Of a DNA stretch of 41,225 nucleotides, positions 1 to 41,225 are shown piece by piece (the first letter of the stretch is position 1; the number at the start of each line of letters is the position of its first letter). Below the pieces are notes generated by a model, which searched no databases, was not told the origin of the DNA, and saw only the letters and a list, made by a program, of their open reading frames with translations. The translations under genes were made by a program, and so were the position numbers. Origin of the DNA: a virus; the IMG/VR virus record IMGVR_UViG_3300048838_000134, positions 1 to 41,225 of that record. One strand, written 5' to 3'.

Positions 1-109
1 AGCAGTGCTGCCTCAATGAGCTTTGAGATAATGGTAAATGCTTTCATGGTCAGAAGTTTGGTAATGGTTCAGATACTCCAAGAATCAACTCTGCTGCGAG
101 CCACAACGC
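1..109. repeat. Terminal direct repeat, copy 1 (identical to 41117..41225)
   Basis: Base-by-base comparison of both contig ends shows 109/109 identity. This implies a 41116-bp circular, circularly permuted or terminally redundant genome. Confidence 0.95.
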
Positions 110-340
110 AGGGCCAACTACAGCCCCCGTGAAGCCCCAGAAGAAGTCGTAATAATCCGCTGTTCCACGGTGCAGCCACTTGTCCTAAATCAACTCTTTG
201 GCTGTCGTGAAGAACAGTGCCACAGCAAGGCCGAATGCCATGTCCCAATTATACAACATAGGGAACCACAGATGCGAGGCCGCTATTGCTGCTATCGCAA
301 TGACCACGGCTGCTAAAAAGTGTTTAAGTTTATCGTTCAT
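50..340 (-). pseudogene. Small multi-TM membrane protein ORF (96 codons) interrupted by one in-frame TAG at 185..187
   Basis: Hand translation gives MNDKLKHFLAAVVIAIAAIAASHLWFPMLYNWDMAFGLAVALFFTTAKELI-TAG-DKWLHRGTADYYDFFWGFTGAVVGPALWLAAELILGVSEPLPNF-TGA. The distal half stays open and hydrophobic in the same frame and has no start codon of its own. Confidence 0.4.
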
Positions 341-2786: not shown

Positions 2787-3368
2787 TTATAGTTTTTTTC
2801 TTGTTCCCCATTTCTCGATTGAGTGATCCATCAACCACTCGTAAACACTGAACCCCGGACACGTCCTGTCAGCCTTCTGATTGTGCCCTATGATAAGTAT
2901 GTCGGGGTGGTGCAGTATCATTAGCTTGCAAAAGGCAAACAGGTCAATGTCCTGTTCCGCTGTGAAGTGATGATCGAAGGTTGCCAGCGGCCCTTTTCCC
3001 CCTTCAAGTACAATATGTATTGCCTCTGAATTTATCCCCGACACGCCCCACGTCATTTCGTCCGAAGTGATGAAGCTGTCAAGGTTGTTCGGTGTAAGTA
3101 TCTCACGTGAGCCGTCACGGTGGATGATAGCATAGTAGCCTAACCGGTCCCAGCCACGCCCTTGCAGCTTAGCTACGGGAACCCCTCCGAGAAGGATATC
3201 GGGTAACGCCTTCCGGGAGGGGTAGTCTCTGCCGTTATACCTGACACGTCCACCGTCGAGATCACGGGGGCCTTTGTGCCATTGCTCAAGAAGATCCCGT
3301 GTCACCTCCATTTGAGGGGGTGTATCTGTACAGTGTAGAACCAGGTATTTCAGCTTTCCCATAACCAA
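2787..3368 (-). CDS. N-acetylmuramoyl-L-alanine amidase (Amidase_2/PGRP, T7-lysozyme-like) endolysin
   Basis: Motifs LVLHCTDT, GWDRLGYYAIIHRDG and IGHNQKADRTCPGF match the zinc-binding and substrate motifs of the Amidase_2 family. Confidence 0.8.
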   Translation of the reverse strand: MVMGKLKYLVLHCTDTPPQMEVTRDLLEQWHKGPRDLDGGRVRYNGRDYPSRKALPDILLGGVPVAKLQGRGWDRLGYYAIIHRDGSREILTPNNLDSFITSDEMTWGVSGINSEAIHIVLEGGKGPLATFDHHFTAEQDIDLFAFCKLMILHHPDILIIGHNQKADRTCPGFSVYEWLMDHSIEKWGTRKKL

Positions 3369-3393: not shown

Positions 3394-3879
3394 TCAGAAC
3401 GTATGAGAGACGCCCCACATCAGGAACCAGTTCGCTTTTATGGGGGAGTTCTTTACAAAATCGTATCCTAACCCGAACGTAGGGGAGAGACCGTAGAGGT
3501 CAAAGGCTGATGCCGTGACAAGCAACCCCATGTTAGGCCGTTCAACTGTCGCAAGGGAGAGTTGTGCCGCAAAGGAATACACGTTGTAAGGCTGTCCGTC
3601 AACGAGCTTGTAGAGGCTGTAAGAGGCTCCCATACCTACACGGGAGGCAAACGATACCTCGAAGCTGTTGAACGTGCCGTCAATGAACACAGGCTTTATG
3701 ACGTTCCCGGCAATGGTAAACTCAGGCCGGATAAGCACGGTACCCGTGAGAGCCTTCTGCCCGTCAAGACCCTGGATCTGTTCGGCTGTTACCGGAGTGA
3801 AGAATCCTTTGAGGGGTGATTGTGCCGTGACGCCCAGCGTCAGCACAAAGAGAACCGAAAGAATGAGTAGCTTTTTCAT
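3394..3879 (-). CDS. Secreted small outer-membrane beta-barrel-like protein (lysis-cassette member)
   Basis: Sec signal peptide MKKLLILSVLFVLTLGVTAQ, alternating hydrophobic beta-strand pattern rich in Gly and aromatic residues, and C-terminal ...WGVSHTF ending in Phe as in OMP C-terminal signatures. ATGA overlap with the holin-like gene. Confidence 0.5.
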   Translation of the reverse strand: MKKLLILSVLFVLTLGVTAQSPLKGFFTPVTAEQIQGLDGQKALTGTVLIRPEFTIAGNVIKPVFIDGTFNSFEVSFASRVGMGASYSLYKLVDGQPYNVYSFAAQLSLATVERPNMGLLVTASAFDLYGLSPTFGLGYDFVKNSPIKANWFLMWGVSHTF

Positions 3880-4118
3880 GCGTCCTTTGCTTTGAAGATG
3901 AGAATGATTGAGGTCACGTAGCCAATGATCTGCACGGCTGCGGTAACGACGCCATTAAGAGCATCAGAGAGAGGTGCGGCCTGTTCCTGATCTACCTTTC
4001 CGGCAGCGATAAGAACAGACACAACAAGCGAGATAACCAGTCCGGCCATGCCTGAGATGGTTGTGATAAGATTCCGTGTAGGAACCTCTTTGTTGAAAAC
4101 AGCTTTTGGTAATGCCAT
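3876..4118 (-). CDS. Holin-like protein, two TM helices
   Basis: 80 aa with two hydrophobic helices (LITTISGMAGLVISLVVSVLIAAG and VVTAAVQIIGYVTSIILIF) and a charged C-terminus KAKDA. It lies two genes upstream of the amidase. Confidence 0.5.
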   Translation of the reverse strand: MALPKAVFNKEVPTRNLITTISGMAGLVISLVVSVLIAAGKVDQEQAAPLSDALNGVVTAAVQIIGYVTSIILIFKAKDA

Positions 4119-4130
4119 TGTTTTAATTAT

Positions 4131-4919
4131 TTATTTGTTTGACAAAAAAGTTTCATACTCATACGGACCGGACAGCTCCGGCACCTGCTCAAATCCATGC
4201 TGCTGCAAGCCCTGTCCTACCTTTATCCGTTCGTTGGTGTAGTATATGCCCCGGTAGTAGGCTTGCAGATCAAAATACGTGAAAGCCCCGTTAAAGCGTC
4301 CGTCAAACTGAGCATCCATGCTCACCTGCTTCGGACCGCACCCGGAGATGATTATCCAGCGTTGTACGCCCTCCGGCTTTGCAAGTCTTGTCACAGCATG
4401 GTGACGTACATCCATCCCCTGTATGGGCATAAAACGAGGCTTACGCCACGTAGGATTACCGAAGTATCTACTACCCATGTCACCGCTGTGGCAACTATCA
4501 AATTTTGCCAGCACCTTTAATGATAGGGGAGTTGCCTGTTGCAGCTTCCAAATCTCGTTATCAATTAGAGGCCCGTTGTAGAGATACAGGGCTTCGTCGT
4601 ACCCGTCCGGTTCAACCGATGACGGAATCTGCGTACCGTGCCCGGAATACTTGATGTACAGGAATCCTCCCTCCGGCATCTGTGACATGACACGCTGAAC
4701 TTCCTCAACAAAGAAGTGCGTTGTTACCTGCTTGTCGAAATAGGTTATACACTGAAACTCCGGGAAGTCTCTTTTGAGTTTCTTAACCTCATCATTGATG
4801 TCATTGACGCAGCCCCGCAGGTCATTGGCCGTGCCCTGGTAGTCGTTTATGCCGAACCCCAGGAACACGTGTGAGGACGTTATGGGCGGCTGTATTGTTT
4901 TCTTGAAACACATGGTCAT
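4131..4919 (-). CDS. Caspase-fold cysteine protease (peptidase C14 / orthocaspase-like)
   Basis: LRGCVNDIND, catalytic His motif YIKYSGHG, catalytic Cys motif KFDSCHSGD, and p10-like IISGCGPKQVSMDA...GAFTYF. Together these form a full p20+p10-like core in 262 aa. Confidence 0.75.
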   Translation of the reverse strand: MTMCFKKTIQPPITSSHVFLGFGINDYQGTANDLRGCVNDINDEVKKLKRDFPEFQCITYFDKQVTTHFFVEEVQRVMSQMPEGGFLYIKYSGHGTQIPSSVEPDGYDEALYLYNGPLIDNEIWKLQQATPLSLKVLAKFDSCHSGDMGSRYFGNPTWRKPRFMPIQGMDVRHHAVTRLAKPEGVQRWIIISGCGPKQVSMDAQFDGRFNGAFTYFDLQAYYRGIYYTNERIKVGQGLQQHGFEQVPELSGPYEYETFLSNK

Positions 4920-5239
4920 CCTTTTTTGATTATCATGTCCGCAATCATCACAATGGTCGTGCTGGCTCCGATGATTCCCATGACGATGGCCGTCATTTTC
5001 TGACGGGCGGTAAGCCTTAACCTGTCCTCGGTATCCGTTGCCACCTTCCGATTAAGTAGTATCTGCACGTTGCCGGATAGCTCCTTAACTGTTCCCGCCA
5101 GCTGTGGCACAACAATATTCAGTTCGGTAACGGCTTTTTGCAGCCCGTTACGTTTTACAATTTTCGATAGGTCAGCCAACTCTGTCCTTATTTCGGCAAT
5201 GTCGCCTTCCTTGACGCAGTATTTATGATCCTCAGACAT
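4916..5239 (-). CDS. Tail-anchored membrane protein (coiled-coil N-terminus, single C-terminal TM)
   Basis: Start moved to the internal Met (MSEDHKY...) at 5239, two nt after the TGA of the upstream gene. C-terminal TM is MTAIVMGIIGASTTIVMIADMII. ATGA overlap with the caspase-like gene. Confidence 0.5.
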   Translation of the reverse strand: MSEDHKYCVKEGDIAEIRTELADLSKIVKRNGLQKAVTELNIVVPQLAGTVKELSGNVQILLNRKVATDTEDRLRLTARQKMTAIVMGIIGASTTIVMIADMIIKKG

Positions 5240-5240
5240 A

Positions 5241-6983
5241 TCAGTGAGTGAGTATAAGTTTTCCGTTAGCTGTTCTGAGAAAGTTACCCGAGGGGAGCCG
5301 GACAAGGTAGTTGCCGTATTCGTGCGCCCCGATGTCAGGAGTTCCATTTTGCGGTACCCTGTGACCCCAATAATCATGTGTCAGTCCCACGTCTATCCCT
5401 GCGTCAATGCATAGGGAGCTTGGACGCAGTCTGAATGTTTCATTGGATTTGAAGAGTGGCTCGACCGTAATGTTCCCTGTCGTAATGTTTATATTGCTAT
5501 AAACTCTCCCCGAGCCCTCCGGCTCTAAATAAATGCTATTACTGCTACCGCATTCGTAGAGGTTATTGTAATTTATCGCCAAATTTGTAAGCACAAGGCT
5601 GTCTGATGCATCCTCTGTGAATGAAATTCCGTACTGGGCAAAATTGTAGATCAAATTGTTTTTAATGTTTACGTTGGTTACTGTCTCATTCGCATAAACT
5701 CCTATTCCGTGATACCCTCTGTAAGTTCCAGAATTTCCTCCTGTTATCGTGTTGTTGTAAATATTAATATTTCTAAAATCCCCGTCGTATTCCGGATCAT
5801 TAGTATTATTTATCCACCATATTCCTATCGAACTCCATGTAAAATCCTTATAGCAAACTTCCTTTATAATATTCCCGTAGACGTAGATGCCGTCCCAGTC
5901 CCAATCGTGATGCCAATAACCTGTTCCACTTGATGGAGTTGATAGTGCTACTCCAACATTAAATTTTTCTATGTAATTGTTGTATATGTAGACTTCATTG
6001 TGACCATCTCCCTCGATCGTTATTGCAACGTAATCCTCATCAGTTCCGTTTACCAATCTCGGTCCCCAATCTTCACCATAAAACAGATTGTTATAAACCT
6101 TGTATCCGAATGTTTCTCCATCCGTTATTTCGTTAAACTCTCCGCCTAATGACAGCTTTGCCAATCCAAAATGCTTATTATCATGGTATTCAGCTCCCCC
6201 CTTGTAATCCCATTCCTCAAGATAGAAATTCCAATAATATGTTCCATCACCGGCTATCTCTGTATCGTCCCTATATAATTTGTTGTCATGTATGTGATGC
6301 CTTTTGTTTCTTATAAAATACAAGCTCTGACCCTCTCCGGTCCTTCCGGTATTAATCAAAATATTATTACTTATTTCTGTTCCGTCCGTTCCCCCCAATC
6401 TTATGCTCCCCGTATAGCTTGCTGCTCCGATATAACTGGTGCAATTTATAATTTCGCAATCATGGACATGGCATCCTGTTAAGAAAACACTCGGGTATGA
6501 TGCACTCACGTAATACCAAATTCCCGAATAATTAAAATCCTTAATTGTGCAGTGGTGTATTTCTACGTTATTTCGGTAGCTCACTTGAATTGCCCTGCTC
6601 GATGTATAGCTCGAACCGTTAAGTTCAATATAGCTGATCGTCTGGTTTCCGTTTTGCGGAGTTCCTGCTGTTGATGCTAATTGTATTGCAGCCTGTACTG
6701 CACTTCCATTCGTATATGTCGTTACAATCTTTGATGAAATTCCTTCACCCATTATGCTTATTCCAACTGGCACTACTATTTGTGTACTGACGTTGTACGT
6801 CCCTGCCACGATGTACACCGTATCCCCGGCAGAGGCGTTGGTTATCCCGGTGGCAATGGTCAGATATGGGTTGCCGCTTGTGCCGTCACCCGTGCCATCG
6901 TTACCCGTAGTCGCAACATATACCTTCGTCGCCCCCAGCGAGAGCGACAGCAGCAGCAGCGGTATTATCAGCAGTTTCTTCAT
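5241..6983 (-). CDS. Right-handed parallel beta-helix protein with N-terminal signal peptide (DUF1565/pectate-lyase-like; putative depolymerase/tailspike)
   Basis: MKKLLIIPLLLLSLSLGA signal, then YVATTGNDGTGDGTSGNPYLTIATGITNASAGDTVYIVAGTY, the classic beta-helix N-cap motif, then many N/G/I-rich coils. By eye it is more AT-rich than its neighbours. Confidence 0.65.
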   Translation of the reverse strand: MKKLLIIPLLLLSLSLGATKVYVATTGNDGTGDGTSGNPYLTIATGITNASAGDTVYIVAGTYNVSTQIVVPVGISIMGEGISSKIVTTYTNGSAVQAAIQLASTAGTPQNGNQTISYIELNGSSYTSSRAIQVSYRNNVEIHHCTIKDFNYSGIWYYVSASYPSVFLTGCHVHDCEIINCTSYIGAASYTGSIRLGGTDGTEISNNILINTGRTGEGQSLYFIRNKRHHIHDNKLYRDDTEIAGDGTYYWNFYLEEWDYKGGAEYHDNKHFGLAKLSLGGEFNEITDGETFGYKVYNNLFYGEDWGPRLVNGTDEDYVAITIEGDGHNEVYIYNNYIEKFNVGVALSTPSSGTGYWHHDWDWDGIYVYGNIIKEVCYKDFTWSSIGIWWINNTNDPEYDGDFRNINIYNNTITGGNSGTYRGYHGIGVYANETVTNVNIKNNLIYNFAQYGISFTEDASDSLVLTNLAINYNNLYECGSSNSIYLEPEGSGRVYSNINITTGNITVEPLFKSNETFRLRPSSLCIDAGIDVGLTHDYWGHRVPQNGTPDIGAHEYGNYLVRLPSGNFLRTANGKLILTH

Positions 6984-12984: not shown

Positions 12985-13045
12985 TCAATTATGCTTTCTT
13001 GTGGTAAAGCGTTGTTTTACTTCATGACAAAAATACGCCCCAGTG

Positions 13046-13077
13046 CTTGCAAATGCCAATACAAATACCTATCTTTG
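13046..13077 (+). promoter_or_regulatory. Bacteroides-type promoter for the plus-strand cassette (-33 cTTG, 20-nt spacer, -7 TATCTTTG)
   Basis: TATCTTTG at 13070..13077 fits TAnnTTTG. CTTG lies at 13046..13049. The ATG at 13098 is about 20 nt downstream. Confidence 0.5.
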
Positions 13078-13097
13078 TCCAAGTGTTGGACAAAACG

Positions 13098-13466
13098 ATG
13101 AATGACAAGGACGAAGAAACTGATTTACAGGAAGTTTACAAGGGAGTAGCAATCTACGCCGACAACTGCCTGGAGAATATCAAAGATGCCCGCAGAGCAT
13201 TACGCCACGCCACAACACGCACAGACAGAAAGATTTACCGCAATGTTATCCGGCACAACCGGAACGAACTGCGTGACGCACGCAACAAAATGAAGATACT
13301 CAAAGCACGTTCAGGTACGACGTGGTGGCTGTGGTTAACCGCACTGCTCCTGAGTATTGTGCTGATGATTGTCATTCCTGGTGCGCCTCTTTATGTCGTG
13401 TTTGCGCCGGTGTGGATAATTGCTTTGATAGGAGTTATCGGAATCTTATTCTATGTAAAGCGATGA
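13098..13466 (+). CDS. Membrane protein (cytoplasmic basic helical N-domain plus two C-terminal TM helices), moron gene 1
   Basis: Start set at the first ATG after the promoter (MNDKDEETD...). TM helices are WWLWLTALLLSIVLMIVIPG and LYVVFAPVWIIALIGVIGILFYV. One of only two genes on the plus strand. Confidence 0.55.
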   Translation: MNDKDEETDLQEVYKGVAIYADNCLENIKDARRALRHATTRTDRKIYRNVIRHNRNELRDARNKMKILKARSGTTWWLWLTALLLSIVLMIVIPGAPLYVVFAPVWIIALIGVIGILFYVKR

Positions 13467-13708
13467 TTTACACGCCAGAGGAATATGCAAGAACATTTAC
13501 TTTTGGCGGTATCTTTTTATCCGCCCGCAGCATTAAGCGGCGGTGTAGGATAGGGCAACTTCCTAAAGGTCATTTAGCCCGTAAGATAGGAGGAAAGACA
13601 GGAGGGTGGATTATTGAGGTAGAGATGTTCTCGGAGAATATCCGTAGGCAGTACAATATTCAACTCACGCTAAAGAAGGAGCAGTCTAAAGCTCCCCAGC
13701 CTTCTTAA
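13463..13708 (+). CDS. Small HTH DNA-binding protein (excisionase/MerR-like HTH_17 type), moron gene 2
   Basis: Start at an internal Met that forms an ATGA overlap with gene 1. FLSARSIKRRCRIGQLPKGHLARKIGGKTGGWII resembles excisionase-family HTH proteins. The 3' end overlaps the convergent tape-measure gene by 23 nt. Confidence 0.5.
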   Translation: MIYTPEEYARTFTFGGIFLSARSIKRRCRIGQLPKGHLARKIGGKTGGWIIEVEMFSENIRRQYNIQLTLKKEQSKAPQPS

Positions 13709-41073: not shown

Positions 41074-41163
41074 TTATATGGTGAATAGTATGTACACCTC
41101 TCCGGCCAGCACCACGAGCAGTGCTGCCTCAATGAGCTTTGAGATAATGGTAAATGCTTTCAT
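41074..41163 (-). CDS. Possible 29-aa hydrophobic peptide spanning the circular junction (also read from 47 back across position 1)
   Basis: Hand-translated as MKAFTIISKLIEAALLVVLAGEVYILFTI. It starts 2 nt after the TGA of ORF 50..340 and ends 12 nt before the next gene. Confidence 0.25.
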   Translation of the reverse strand: MKAFTIISKLIEAALLVVLAGEVYILFTI

Positions 41164-41225
41164 GGTCAGAAGTTTGGTAATGGTTCAGATACTCCAAGAA
41201 TCAACTCTGCTGCGAGCCACAACGC
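41117..41225. repeat. Terminal direct repeat, copy 2 (identical to 1..109)
   Basis: Same comparison as copy 1. The repeat runs exactly to the end of the window. Confidence 0.95.

Follow-up and report, generated by a model that had tools for sequence, protein, structure and literature searches.

A caspase-fold cysteine protease in a conserved, putative lysis cassette of tailed phages

Background

Why would a tailed phage place the gene for a caspase-like protease among genes that look like those of a lysis module? The question is raised by a 41,225-nucleotide stretch of viral DNA (IMG/VR record IMGVR_UViG_3300048838_000134, positions 1 to 41,225; "the window" hereafter means this whole stretch), in which a gene for a Peptidase_C14-type cysteine protease lies between genes for small membrane or secreted proteins and is followed by that of an amidase (Table 1). 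A first-pass annotation, made from the DNA letters alone, had described the gene as encoding a complete caspase-fold protease inside a five-gene lysis cassette and had offered three roles for it, namely cleavage of the adjacent membrane proteins, processing of a component of the host envelope, and counter-defence. Our analysis leads us to believe, with a confidence that stops a little short of even, that the protease belongs, as a dedicated part, to a conserved lysis cassette of several genes in tailed phages that probably infect Bacteroidota. With much the same reserve we suggest that it is held at the inner membrane, where it would cleave co-encoded lysis membrane proteins and so license or complete lysis; the choice of substrate is a guess.

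Results and discussion

A metacaspase-type protease encoded by a tailed phage

The product of the gene matches Peptidase_C14 in Pfam (PF00656; 47 bits against a cut-off of 21.4, E 3.4e-12). By sequence its closest solved relative in the PDB is the small bacterial protein GSU0716 (3BIJ, E 8e-20), which is followed by plant, yeast and trypanosome metacaspases (E 1e-8 to 1e-11). An AlphaFold (AF2) model built on 29 homologues reached a predicted local distance difference test score (pLDDT) of 83 and a predicted TM score (pTM) of 0.85, and as modelled the protein adopts the caspase-haemoglobinase fold; the top Foldseek matches of the model were AtMC9, AtMC4 and 3BIJ (E 4e-15 to 1e-13, TMq 0.68-0.75), with MALT1, TbMCA2 and the caspases ranking behind them. 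Profile, sequence and fold comparisons thus place the protein in the caspase/metacaspase family and not in a non-protease family, and bear out its initial description as a complete, C14-like protease. The true start of the gene is probably the second ATG, at 4913, which would give a protein of 260 amino acids (aa) beginning MCFKK, since nearly all homologues begin there; the gene caller also started the 95%-identical homologue of contig L001 at MCFKK.

The catalytic residues His94 and Cys143 are invariant across the 29 homologues, whose identities range from 38 to 95%, and the same is true of the p10-like residues S192 G193 C194, D202 A203 and G211 A212, so that both the dyad, in the order and context first noticed, and the p10-like region stand. 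Invariant in this alignment are also C37, D40, S92 and D141, which map by motif position (GCxND, SGHG and DxC) onto Cys92, Asp95, Ser156 and Asp211, the residues that form the S1 pocket of TbMCA2 (PMC4357240). From this invariance and this match we predict an acidic S1 pocket and cleavage after Arg or Lys. The equivalents of the Ca2+ site of TbMCA2 (D173/D189/D190/D220), mapped by spacing only, are kept in part: E109 and D120 are invariant, and D105, D108, N121 and D147 vary. The linker between the p20- and p10-like parts (residues 145-183) is disordered, with low pLDDT, and contains a conserved [KR]-x-[RK]-[FY] motif (RKPRF) that is a candidate site of autoprocessing.

Taken together, the protein adds a further, new member to an enzyme family already known; it is a genuine and, to judge from its residues, probably active enzyme of the metacaspase/orthocaspase type. 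We find it hard to believe that it should be a catalytically irrelevant scaffold that merely organises membrane lysis proteins. Pseudopeptidase metacaspases do exist, TbMCA4 being an example, but in the family described here neither the dyad nor the S1 pocket varies among homologues down to 38% identity, both persist in rearranged variants, and the replacement of the caspase by a C1 protease with intact Cys and His, described below, points to catalysis as the selected function.

Searches of the known phage world returned little of this kind. PHROGs and NCBIfam hold no family for the protease or for its two core partners of 80 and 161 aa, and BFVD holds no phage structure of the type, its caspase-fold entries coming from giant and insect viruses. 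The sole tblastn match of the protease among deposited phage records, at 30% identity, lies in a 485-kb uncultured megaphage (H1, LR745208.1, 345847-346593; L047, an IMG/VR contig of 485,040 bp). Distant caspase homologues are also found on many other contigs of jumbo phages and have neither the N-terminal Met-Cys (MC) motif nor the partners that are described below; the role of these proteins is probably a different one.

A conserved trio of genes beside exchangeable lysins

Reading the DNA confirmed the order of the open reading frames (ORFs), that is, 107-aa gene, protease, 80-aa gene, 161-aa gene and amidase, and also the junctions from which translational coupling had been proposed. At the ggATGAccATG junction (ggATGAccATGtgt) the stop of the upstream 107-aa gene overlaps the first ATG of the protease, a gap of 12 nucleotides (nt; 4119..4130) separates the protease from the gene of the 80-aa protein with two transmembrane (TM) helices, and an ATGA overlap links the latter to the gene of the 161-aa signal-peptide protein. 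The neighbours likewise answer to their earlier descriptions as a tail-anchored TM protein, a holin-like 2-TM protein, a signal-peptide protein resembling an outer-membrane protein (OMP) and an amidase. As a whole, these assignments go far beyond what chance could produce.

How much of this arrangement is kept elsewhere? The same local gene order is found on contigs with protease homologues of 95% down to ~40% identity and with very different phage backbones, one of which is crAss-like (CrAss_Ring and MUZ proteins). According to tblastn comparisons across the loci, homologues of the 80-aa and 161-aa proteins lie directly downstream of the protease, and the amidase and the 107-aa protein are not found outside the closest relatives. 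In a census of 25 non-redundant loci of the clade, a member of the 161-aa family is encoded within four genes of the protease in 18 loci and a member of the 80-aa family in 13, another small 2-TM protein occupying position +1 in most of the others. A small 2-TM gene at +1 or +2 is present in 19 of the 25 clade loci, as compared to 7 of 56 distant viral and 2 of 70 cellular loci, and a partner with signal peptide and beta-signal in 17 of 25, as compared to 2 of 56 and none of 70. Approached from the side of the partner, the picture is the same: a cysteine protease occupies the upstream slot in all 12 IMG/VR loci that were reached via the 161-aa protein (in one of them by tblastn only), and likewise in all contig sets of the protein collections reached in this way. 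The collection scan for relatives of the 161-aa protein used the closer alignment (A2), the broad alignment of the family (SP-161, A3) being too divergent.

About one third of the close homologues of the 161-aa protein are fusions, in which a 2-TM protein is followed by a basic, cytoplasmic linker, a signal peptide or signal-peptide-like TM helix and the beta-domain. Examples are P0134, P0158, P0176 and P0124 as well as L025:6825-7574, L026:6769-7539 and L182:4554-5435, and some fusions have a signal peptide and a TM helix in place of the 2-TM part. These natural fusions argue that the 2-TM and 161-aa partners act as a unit; the fusion product is possibly a polyprotein that is cut by signal peptidase, by the protease or by both.

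The peptidoglycan hydrolase next to the trio of protease, 2-TM protein and 161-aa protein is exchangeable. Four non-homologous types of lysin flank the trio, namely the Amidase_2/PHROG 822 enzyme of the window (whose Pfam Amidase_2 match of 9e-5 is below the cut-off), a DUF5675 lysin in related loci (Pfam, 1.8e-21) and, in other loci, an M15_3-like (PHROG 894, 2e-19) and an M15_4-like endolysin (PHROG 465, 1e-26). DUF5675 has been reported as a C82-like lysin (2026 preprint). Four unrelated peptidoglycan hydrolases around one conserved trio are the signature of a lysis cassette. Of the five genes originally grouped together, then, the three core genes form the conserved unit; the lysin is interchangeable and the 107-aa protein occurs in some loci only. 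The linkage with membrane proteins and peptidoglycan hydrolases as such is kept across unrelated backbones, including the crAss-like one. GIY-YIG/NUMOD3 homing-endonuclease genes have repeatedly been inserted in or beside the cassette (L010:5436-5999, L013:6803-7528, L014:3335-4018, L018:3654-4310, L006:3222-3965), and in some phages they part the protease from its partners.

This conservation bears on the possibility that protease, 2-TM protein and OMP-like protein make up a moron without any function in lysis, that is, a device for counter-defence, host takeover, superinfection exclusion or abortive infection which merely came to be inserted near lysis and tail-fibre genes. Morons often adjoin such genes, as do lambda bor and lom, phage-encoded OMPs such as Lom are conversion genes, and some carriers of the trio are temperate (integrases in L174, L175 and L194). 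Moreover, caspase-like proteases serve as effectors or activators in bacterial immunity, and the protease of the window matches the generic 'caspase' model of PADLOC (E 2.8e-11). However, the trio forms a translationally coupled part of a late operon and shares its strand with the lysin, its position relative to the four lysin types is conserved across unrelated backbones, including that of a crAss-like phage, and neither sensor domains (TPR, NACHT, repeats) nor a gasdermin-like partner belong to it. A non-lysis moron therefore appears improbable to us.

Two more specific assignments were rejected. The locus is not a known defence system, as the four neighbours match no PADLOC model and the protease matches only the generic one, and a gasdermin-like partner found no Pfam, PADLOC or fold match among the neighbours, the partner being Sec-exported.

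A second protease fold in the same slot

In one phage, represented by the equivalent loci L177, L189 and L198, the slot of the caspase is filled by a 249-aa protease of the papain family (Peptidase_C1, 64 bits against a cut-off of 20.7). On three more phage contigs (L199, L201 and L202) genes for small TM proteins and for a member of the 161-aa family come after that of a C1 protease. By profile the 161-aa-type partners of the C1 loci match with E values of 2.5e-51 to 1.2e-23 overall, and of 7e-42 to 1.2e-23 in the latter three. Thus the caspase is replaced by a non-orthologous C1 protease in at least four phages. The occurrence of two unrelated cysteine-protease folds in one slot argues that proteolysis itself is the selected function.

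The C1 replacements have invariant C53 and H181 residues (alignment A4) and lack the N-terminus that is typical of the caspases; they have instead a Pro-rich linker that leads to a terminal anchor. This anchor is a basic-Cys-amphipathic tail (KKGCLAKIFGF), a MinD-like basic amphipathic helix or a true C-terminal TM helix after basic residues (KKSWFKRLWWIIPVVAAIIVSIIIFT). With such a tail anchor the catalytic domain of the C1 enzyme would lie on the cytoplasmic face of the membrane. Distant papain-family relatives, many of them on contigs of giant-virus metagenome-assembled genomes (MAGs), end in CaaX-like Cys boxes such as KKCCIIS, CCVIV and CPNCTIV (P0303, P0308, P0330, P0341, P0344 and P0352; loci L210, L212, L222, L228 and L233). 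Anchors of the prenylation type appear to be used by this viral C1 family in eukaryotic hosts, and TM or amphipathic ones in phages.

The caspases of the clade vary too. In a rearranged sister group the His-bearing strand, the acidic loop and a helix (residues ~81-124 of the window protein) have moved to the C-terminus (L174:4145-4948, L175:3935-4729, L180, L181, L182, L183, L185, L186, L188 and L193). The relocated segment is recognisable by 41% identity (E 1e-5 to 3e-6). The group retains the two catalytic motifs as well as the MC motif at the N-terminus, and among the loci found via the 161-aa protein the rearranged form is in the majority.

An N-terminal motif and the case for a membrane anchor

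At least 107 of 120 caspase homologues begin with M-C-[FWLI]-[KR]-[KR], a motif that is often extended to an amphipathic (I/L)(F/W)xW(F/L) segment and then followed by a Pro-rich linker such as PDPIPVP. It is present in 20 of the 25 clade loci and in none of the 56 distant viral and 70 cellular relatives. By analogy with the anchors of the C1 proteases we suggest that it is a membrane-targeting device; the terminal peptides of the two protease types would then be interchangeable membrane anchors, demonstrably so in the C1 type and by analogy in the caspase type. That a Cys at the N-terminus can be S-palmitoylated in the cytoplasm of bacteria has a precedent in the bacterial gasdermins (bGSDM; Johnson et al.). 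Alternatively, the N-terminal peptide could be a pure pseudo-substrate, given that the N-terminus of TbMCA2 acts as a gatekeeper (PMC4357240), but the papain-type replacements, with TM helices and amphipathic tails at their C-termini, favour a shared anchor, of which the pseudo-substrate is the less parsimonious alternative. A slippery signal at the nucleotide level was also considered for MCFKK and judged unlikely, as the codons vary (MCWKR, MCLRK) and the protein motif is kept.

The nature of the slot is of importance also for the idea that the protease is a second endolysin, a caspase-fold stem-peptide peptidase that cuts next to a dibasic residue (meso-diaminopimelic acid, Lys or Orn) and complements the amidase. 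Its place in a lysis cassette and its lack of a signal peptide would suit such an enzyme, and so would the predicted S1 pocket, which could accommodate a side chain with a terminal amine. However, no C14 or C1 member is known to cleave peptidoglycan, and the slot is shared with a true papain-family C1 protease and not with CHAP or NlpC/P60 enzymes. The membrane anchors would leave the catalytic domain facing the cytoplasm, a lysin is present in every cassette anyway and in several is itself a stem-peptide peptidase, and the linkage of the protease is to the 2-TM and OMP-like proteins and not to a type of lysin. Hence, although 'cysteine protease-like' halves of actinobacteriophage lysin A proteins have been interpreted as peptidoglycan peptidases (PMC4982276), we rate this role as very improbable.

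The partners of the protease

The 80-aa family is holin-like in size and topology. Its members have a basic N-tail (K5, K10, R15), a conserved periplasmic (V/I)TPEQS loop and an FKAKD C-tail, and a weak match to a holin profile was obtained for the member of L011 (PHROG 526, E 0.0075). In an alternative 2-TM family, F14, a conserved [KR]-G directly precedes the first TM helix (TM1).

All 19 members of the 161-aa family that were inspected have both a signal peptide and a C-terminal beta-signal, which resembles that of OmpF/OmpC (G[VI]xYxF) and ends in an invariant Phe161. The AF2 model (pLDDT 76) consists of long antiparallel strands and beta-hairpins and found no significant PDB match in Foldseek, with Ail, OmpX, PagP and OprG at E >= 0.09 and a TM score of ~0.3. 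On the basis of signal peptide, beta-signal and strand pattern the protein is probably a small outer-membrane beta-barrel. Ahead of the first strand it has a disordered N-terminal extension of low pLDDT with a GFFxPV motif and with K42, which lies within G-[DE]-[KR]-[AG] and is Lys or Arg in 98% of 138 members.

The 107-aa protein is found only in some cassettes (homologues in L001-4, L094, L174 and L175) and could be assigned neither by Pfam nor by PHROG. The cassette of the window contains no lipobox protein, and in this sense no spanin, the signal of the 161-aa protein being of the signal peptidase I type. Some other cassettes contain a lipoprotein family with lipoboxes LFSGC/LTSSC and conserved Cys pairs (L177:4574-4972, L175:3366-3956), which could be an o-spanin-like component. 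In several cassettes a highly cationic amphipathic peptide of 40-41 aa (MRELAIKIKVNVLTLIKWARKFLKWRRQ...) is encoded directly upstream of the protease (L174:4036-4158; 41-aa ORFs in L179 at 3862 and in L184 at ~3850; L182 around 3724); it recalls the outer-membrane-active lysis peptides of the disruptin type.

What might the protease do in lysis?

Of the three roles initially envisaged, cleavage of the neighbouring membrane proteins agrees best with the anchor evidence, a target in the host envelope is possible and counter-defence is the least supported, because the gene is tied to 2-TM and OMP-like partners and lysins and not to anti-defence loci, and because the partners match nothing in PADLOC. 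We therefore propose the following course of events. The protease would be made in the cytoplasm, without a signal peptide, and would be held at the cytoplasmic face of the inner membrane by M-C-F-K-K, that is, by an amphipathic segment and possibly an S-acylated Cys2. Proximity-driven autoprocessing at the [KR]-x-[RK]-[FY] motif of the linker would mature the enzyme, which could then cut after basic residues in cytoplasmic tails, in the basic N-tail of the 2-TM protein and possibly in the 107-aa protein; candidate sites are present in the basic tails of the 2-TM partners, including the [KR]-G before TM1 of the F14 type. Loss of these charged tails might shift the proteins to a hole-forming state, much as lambda S107 and S105 differ, and license the release of the amidase, and the OMP-like 161-aa protein would serve the outer-membrane step.

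Several points weigh against this scheme. Proteolysis, membrane binding and an effect on lysis are all deduced from sequences and models. The window protease has only the short form of the motif (MCFKK and TIQPPITSS), which is too short for an amphipathic helix, and the confidence of the AlphaFold model is low at this place. The juxtamembrane basic residue of the 80-aa family is Lys or Arg in only ~8 of 14 members, and several other small multi-TM proteins recur in the cassettes as rival candidates for the holin. Protease and supposed substrate are co-expressed, so an extra timing device is needed and has to be postulated, and the subsite preferences of caspases and papains differ, though both accept Arg or Lys at P1. 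Finally, a mechanism confined to the cytoplasmic face does not on its own account for the obligate exported, OMP-like partner.

It is this obligate linkage that is better explained if the protease acts after the holin. Latent until the holin opens the inner membrane, it might then be activated, for example by Ca2+ influx like the Ca2+-dependent metacaspases, reach the periplasm and cut the 161-aa protein at K42, which would switch on disruption of the outer membrane; host tethers between outer membrane and peptidoglycan might be cut in addition or instead. The protease would in this case be a spanin substitute, comparable to LysB of mycobacteriophages. Like canonical endolysins, which await the holin, it lacks a signal peptide, and no recognisable lipobox spanin is present in the window. 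The near-constant basic residue at K42 lies in a low-pLDDT extension, and metacaspases and papain-like enzymes alike take Arg or Lys at P1, but K42 may equally be structural. The partly kept acidic residues of the Ca2+ site are similarly ambiguous, E109 and D120 being invariant whereas the equivalents D105, D108 and D147 vary. Moreover, cysteine proteases are vulnerable in the oxidising periplasm, and several of the C1 replacements are tail-anchored by a TM helix with their catalytic domain in the cytoplasm, which speaks against a freely diffusing periplasmic enzyme. We thus look upon a post-holin executioner as unlikely, albeit as a serious contender, and continue to prefer cleavage of membrane partners from the cytoplasmic face.

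Relation to known systems

With metacaspases and orthocaspases (AtMC9, AtMC4, Yca1, TbMCA2, GSU0716 = 3BIJ and MaOC1) the protease shares the fold, the YSGHG/DSCHSG dyad, the predicted acidic S1 pocket and a disordered p20/p10 linker with a conserved basic site, and like 3BIJ it is of single-domain size. It differs from them in being phage-encoded, in having M-C-[FW]-K-K and a Pro-rich segment in place of a prodomain, in its fixed lysis-cassette neighbourhood, in its rearranged sister group and in keeping the Ca2+-site residues only in part.

The bacterial gasdermins with their caspase-like proteases (Johnson et al.) are similar in that a C14-type protease is encoded beside membrane-acting partners and presumably unleashes membrane damage, and in the palmitoylation precedent for a conserved N-terminal Cys. 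In the phage cassette, however, there is no gasdermin; the protease is accompanied by a 2-TM protein and an OMP-like protein that is exported by Sec, the conserved Cys is on the protease and not on the pore former, the protease is without sensor repeats, and the setting is a late lysis operon of a phage and not a host defence island.

Lambda S105/S107 and the phage 21 pinholin S68/S71 are, like the 80-aa partner, small 2-TM proteins with a Gly/Ala/Ser-rich TM1 and a positive N-tail, and the charge switch proposed here has its counterpart in them. They work by dual translation starts and membrane depolarisation, without a protease, and homology does not go beyond the weak PHROG 526 match. Spanins (Rz/Rz1, the u-spanin gp11), the disruptin gp28 and LysB provide examples of extra cassette genes that deal with the outer layer beyond holin and endolysin, and the overlapping or fused inner- and outer-membrane components of the present cassette recall two-component and unimolecular spanins, respectively. 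In contrast to these systems, the cassette has no lipoprotein o-spanin and no long periplasmic coiled coil, but a beta-barrel-like outer-membrane component and an obligate cysteine protease.

Caspase-fold proteins are also found in eukaryotic viruses, among them the caspase/metacaspase homologues of giant viruses (BFVD), and both protease families have relatives in giant-virus MAGs; baculovirus V-CATH is a late C1 protease that aids the release of progeny by destroying host structures. These proteins have neither the MC motif nor partners of the 2-TM and OMP-like kinds, act on other hosts and another kind of envelope, and have CaaX-like ends and not bacterial-type anchors. In the literature searched, including a 2025 survey of lytic proteins from viruses of prokaryotes, no caspase, metacaspase or C1 protease is described as a component of a phage lysis cassette. 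Judged by its sequences, a cassette of protease, 2-TM protein and OMP-like protein, with interchangeable protease folds and terminal anchors, is new among phage lysis modules.

The genome around the cassette

The window is a complete tailed-phage genome with nearly all genes on the minus strand, among them those for terminase, portal, a ClpP-type prohead protease, tape measure, helicase, methylase and exonuclease. An exact repeat of 109 nt at its two ends (1-109 = 41117-41225) identifies the contig as complete, with a genome of 41,116 bp that is circular or terminally redundant; the lysis cassette is close to the arbitrary break of the assembly. A near-identity search with the first 12 kb of the window found no near-identical deposited phage. 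The host is probably a member of the Bacteroidota, an indirect assignment to which a contig from a Bacteroidetes MAG, markers of the crAss-like type, integrases of Bacteroidota type and a C1 homologue from Prolixibacteraceae have led. No tRNAs, and hence no clue to the host from this side, were detected in the window, and scans for promoters and terminators gave counts not above the shuffled expectation, the sigma-70 consensus used being inappropriate for Bacteroidota.

Table 1. Features of the putative lysis cassette and of the protease gene (positions refer to the window)
Feature	Position	Strand	Remarks
Peptidase_C14 cysteine protease, metacaspase/orthocaspase-like	4131..4919	-	262 aa from first ATG
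M-C-F-K-K motif; clade hallmark M-C-[FWLI]-[KR]-[KR] and Pro-rich linker (TIQPPITSS here)	4899..4913	-	proposed membrane-targeting/lipidation motif
Catalytic His94 codon (CAC), YSGHG motif; neighbouring Ser92 in predicted S1 pocket	4638..4640	-	invariant in alignment
Catalytic Cys143 codon (TGC), FDSCHSG motif; Asp141 predicted S1-pocket acid	4491..4493	-	invariant in alignment
80-aa holin-like protein, family F1, +1 partner	3876..4118	-	two Gly/Ala/Ser/Thr-rich TM helices
161-aa secreted all-beta protein, family F0, obligate partner	3394..3879	-	Sec signal peptide (..VTAQ/S), C-terminal OMP beta-signal (GVSHTF)
193-aa N-acetylmuramoyl-L-alanine amidase (endolysin), without signal peptide	2787..3368	-	PHROG 822 (lysis) 1e-27
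107-aa tail-anchored protein, family F11	4916..5239	-	N-terminal coiled-coil-like part, conserved Cys-x-Lys-Glu, C-terminal TM
Homologue of a recurrent ~90-aa multi-TM cassette family, possible holin	50..340	-	interrupted by in-frame TAG at 187..185

Tail-fibre- or depolymerase-like genes lie on both sides of the cassette (5241-6983, 1391-2782 and 378-1394, all on the minus strand). The flanking proteins include a right-handed beta-helix protein of 580 aa, which combines an N-terminus like a signal peptide with a choice-of-anchor Q domain, a protein of 463 aa with a C-terminal match to PHROG 26223 and a GH28-like beta-helix protein. The last feature of Table 1 belongs to a family found just upstream of the cassettes of L174, L175 and L177. 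It is 38% identical over 87 aa (E 5e-14) to the member of L175, in an alignment that continues past the in-frame TAG, where homologues show Trp (TGG). The TAG could be a nonsense mutation, mark a suppressor-dependent or read-through gene, or be an assembly variant. Genome-wide recoding of the stop codon was ruled out, as ORF coverage with code 11 is 93% and TAG ends 6 of 52 long ORFs. Finally, the left end aside, only one stretch of more than 250 nt, at positions 12985-13685, lacks any minus-strand ORF of 60 aa or more; it contains two overlapping plus-strand ORFs (13047-13466 and 13322-13708).

Conclusions

Lysis by Bacteroidota phages, including the abundant crAss-like phages of the gut, is essentially uncharted, and holins and spanins are rarely recognisable in them. 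The trio with its exchangeable lysin provides a concrete and widespread set of genes with hundreds of metagenomic members. We put forward, tentatively and with the chances somewhat against it, that Bacteroidota phages, crAss-like ones among them, have a new class of lysis, in which a membrane-anchored cysteine protease of caspase or papain fold acts as a proteolytic trigger or clock for small membrane lysis proteins and a phage-encoded outer-membrane beta-barrel protein takes the place of spanins. On this reading phage lysis proteins would gain, with the protease, a fourth class by function, and the viral world an equivalent of membrane rupture under caspase control. The rearranged caspases and the possible cytoplasmic lipidation motif deserve, in themselves, the attention of protease biochemists and membrane biologists. 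If the protease indeed controls or executes lysis, proteolytic licensing would be added to the holin-endolysin-spanin paradigm, and phages would offer a parallel to cell death by caspase and gasdermin. The protease would then also provide new handles for annotating lysis modules, for engineering the timing of lysis and for finding envelope-active proteins against Bacteroidota.

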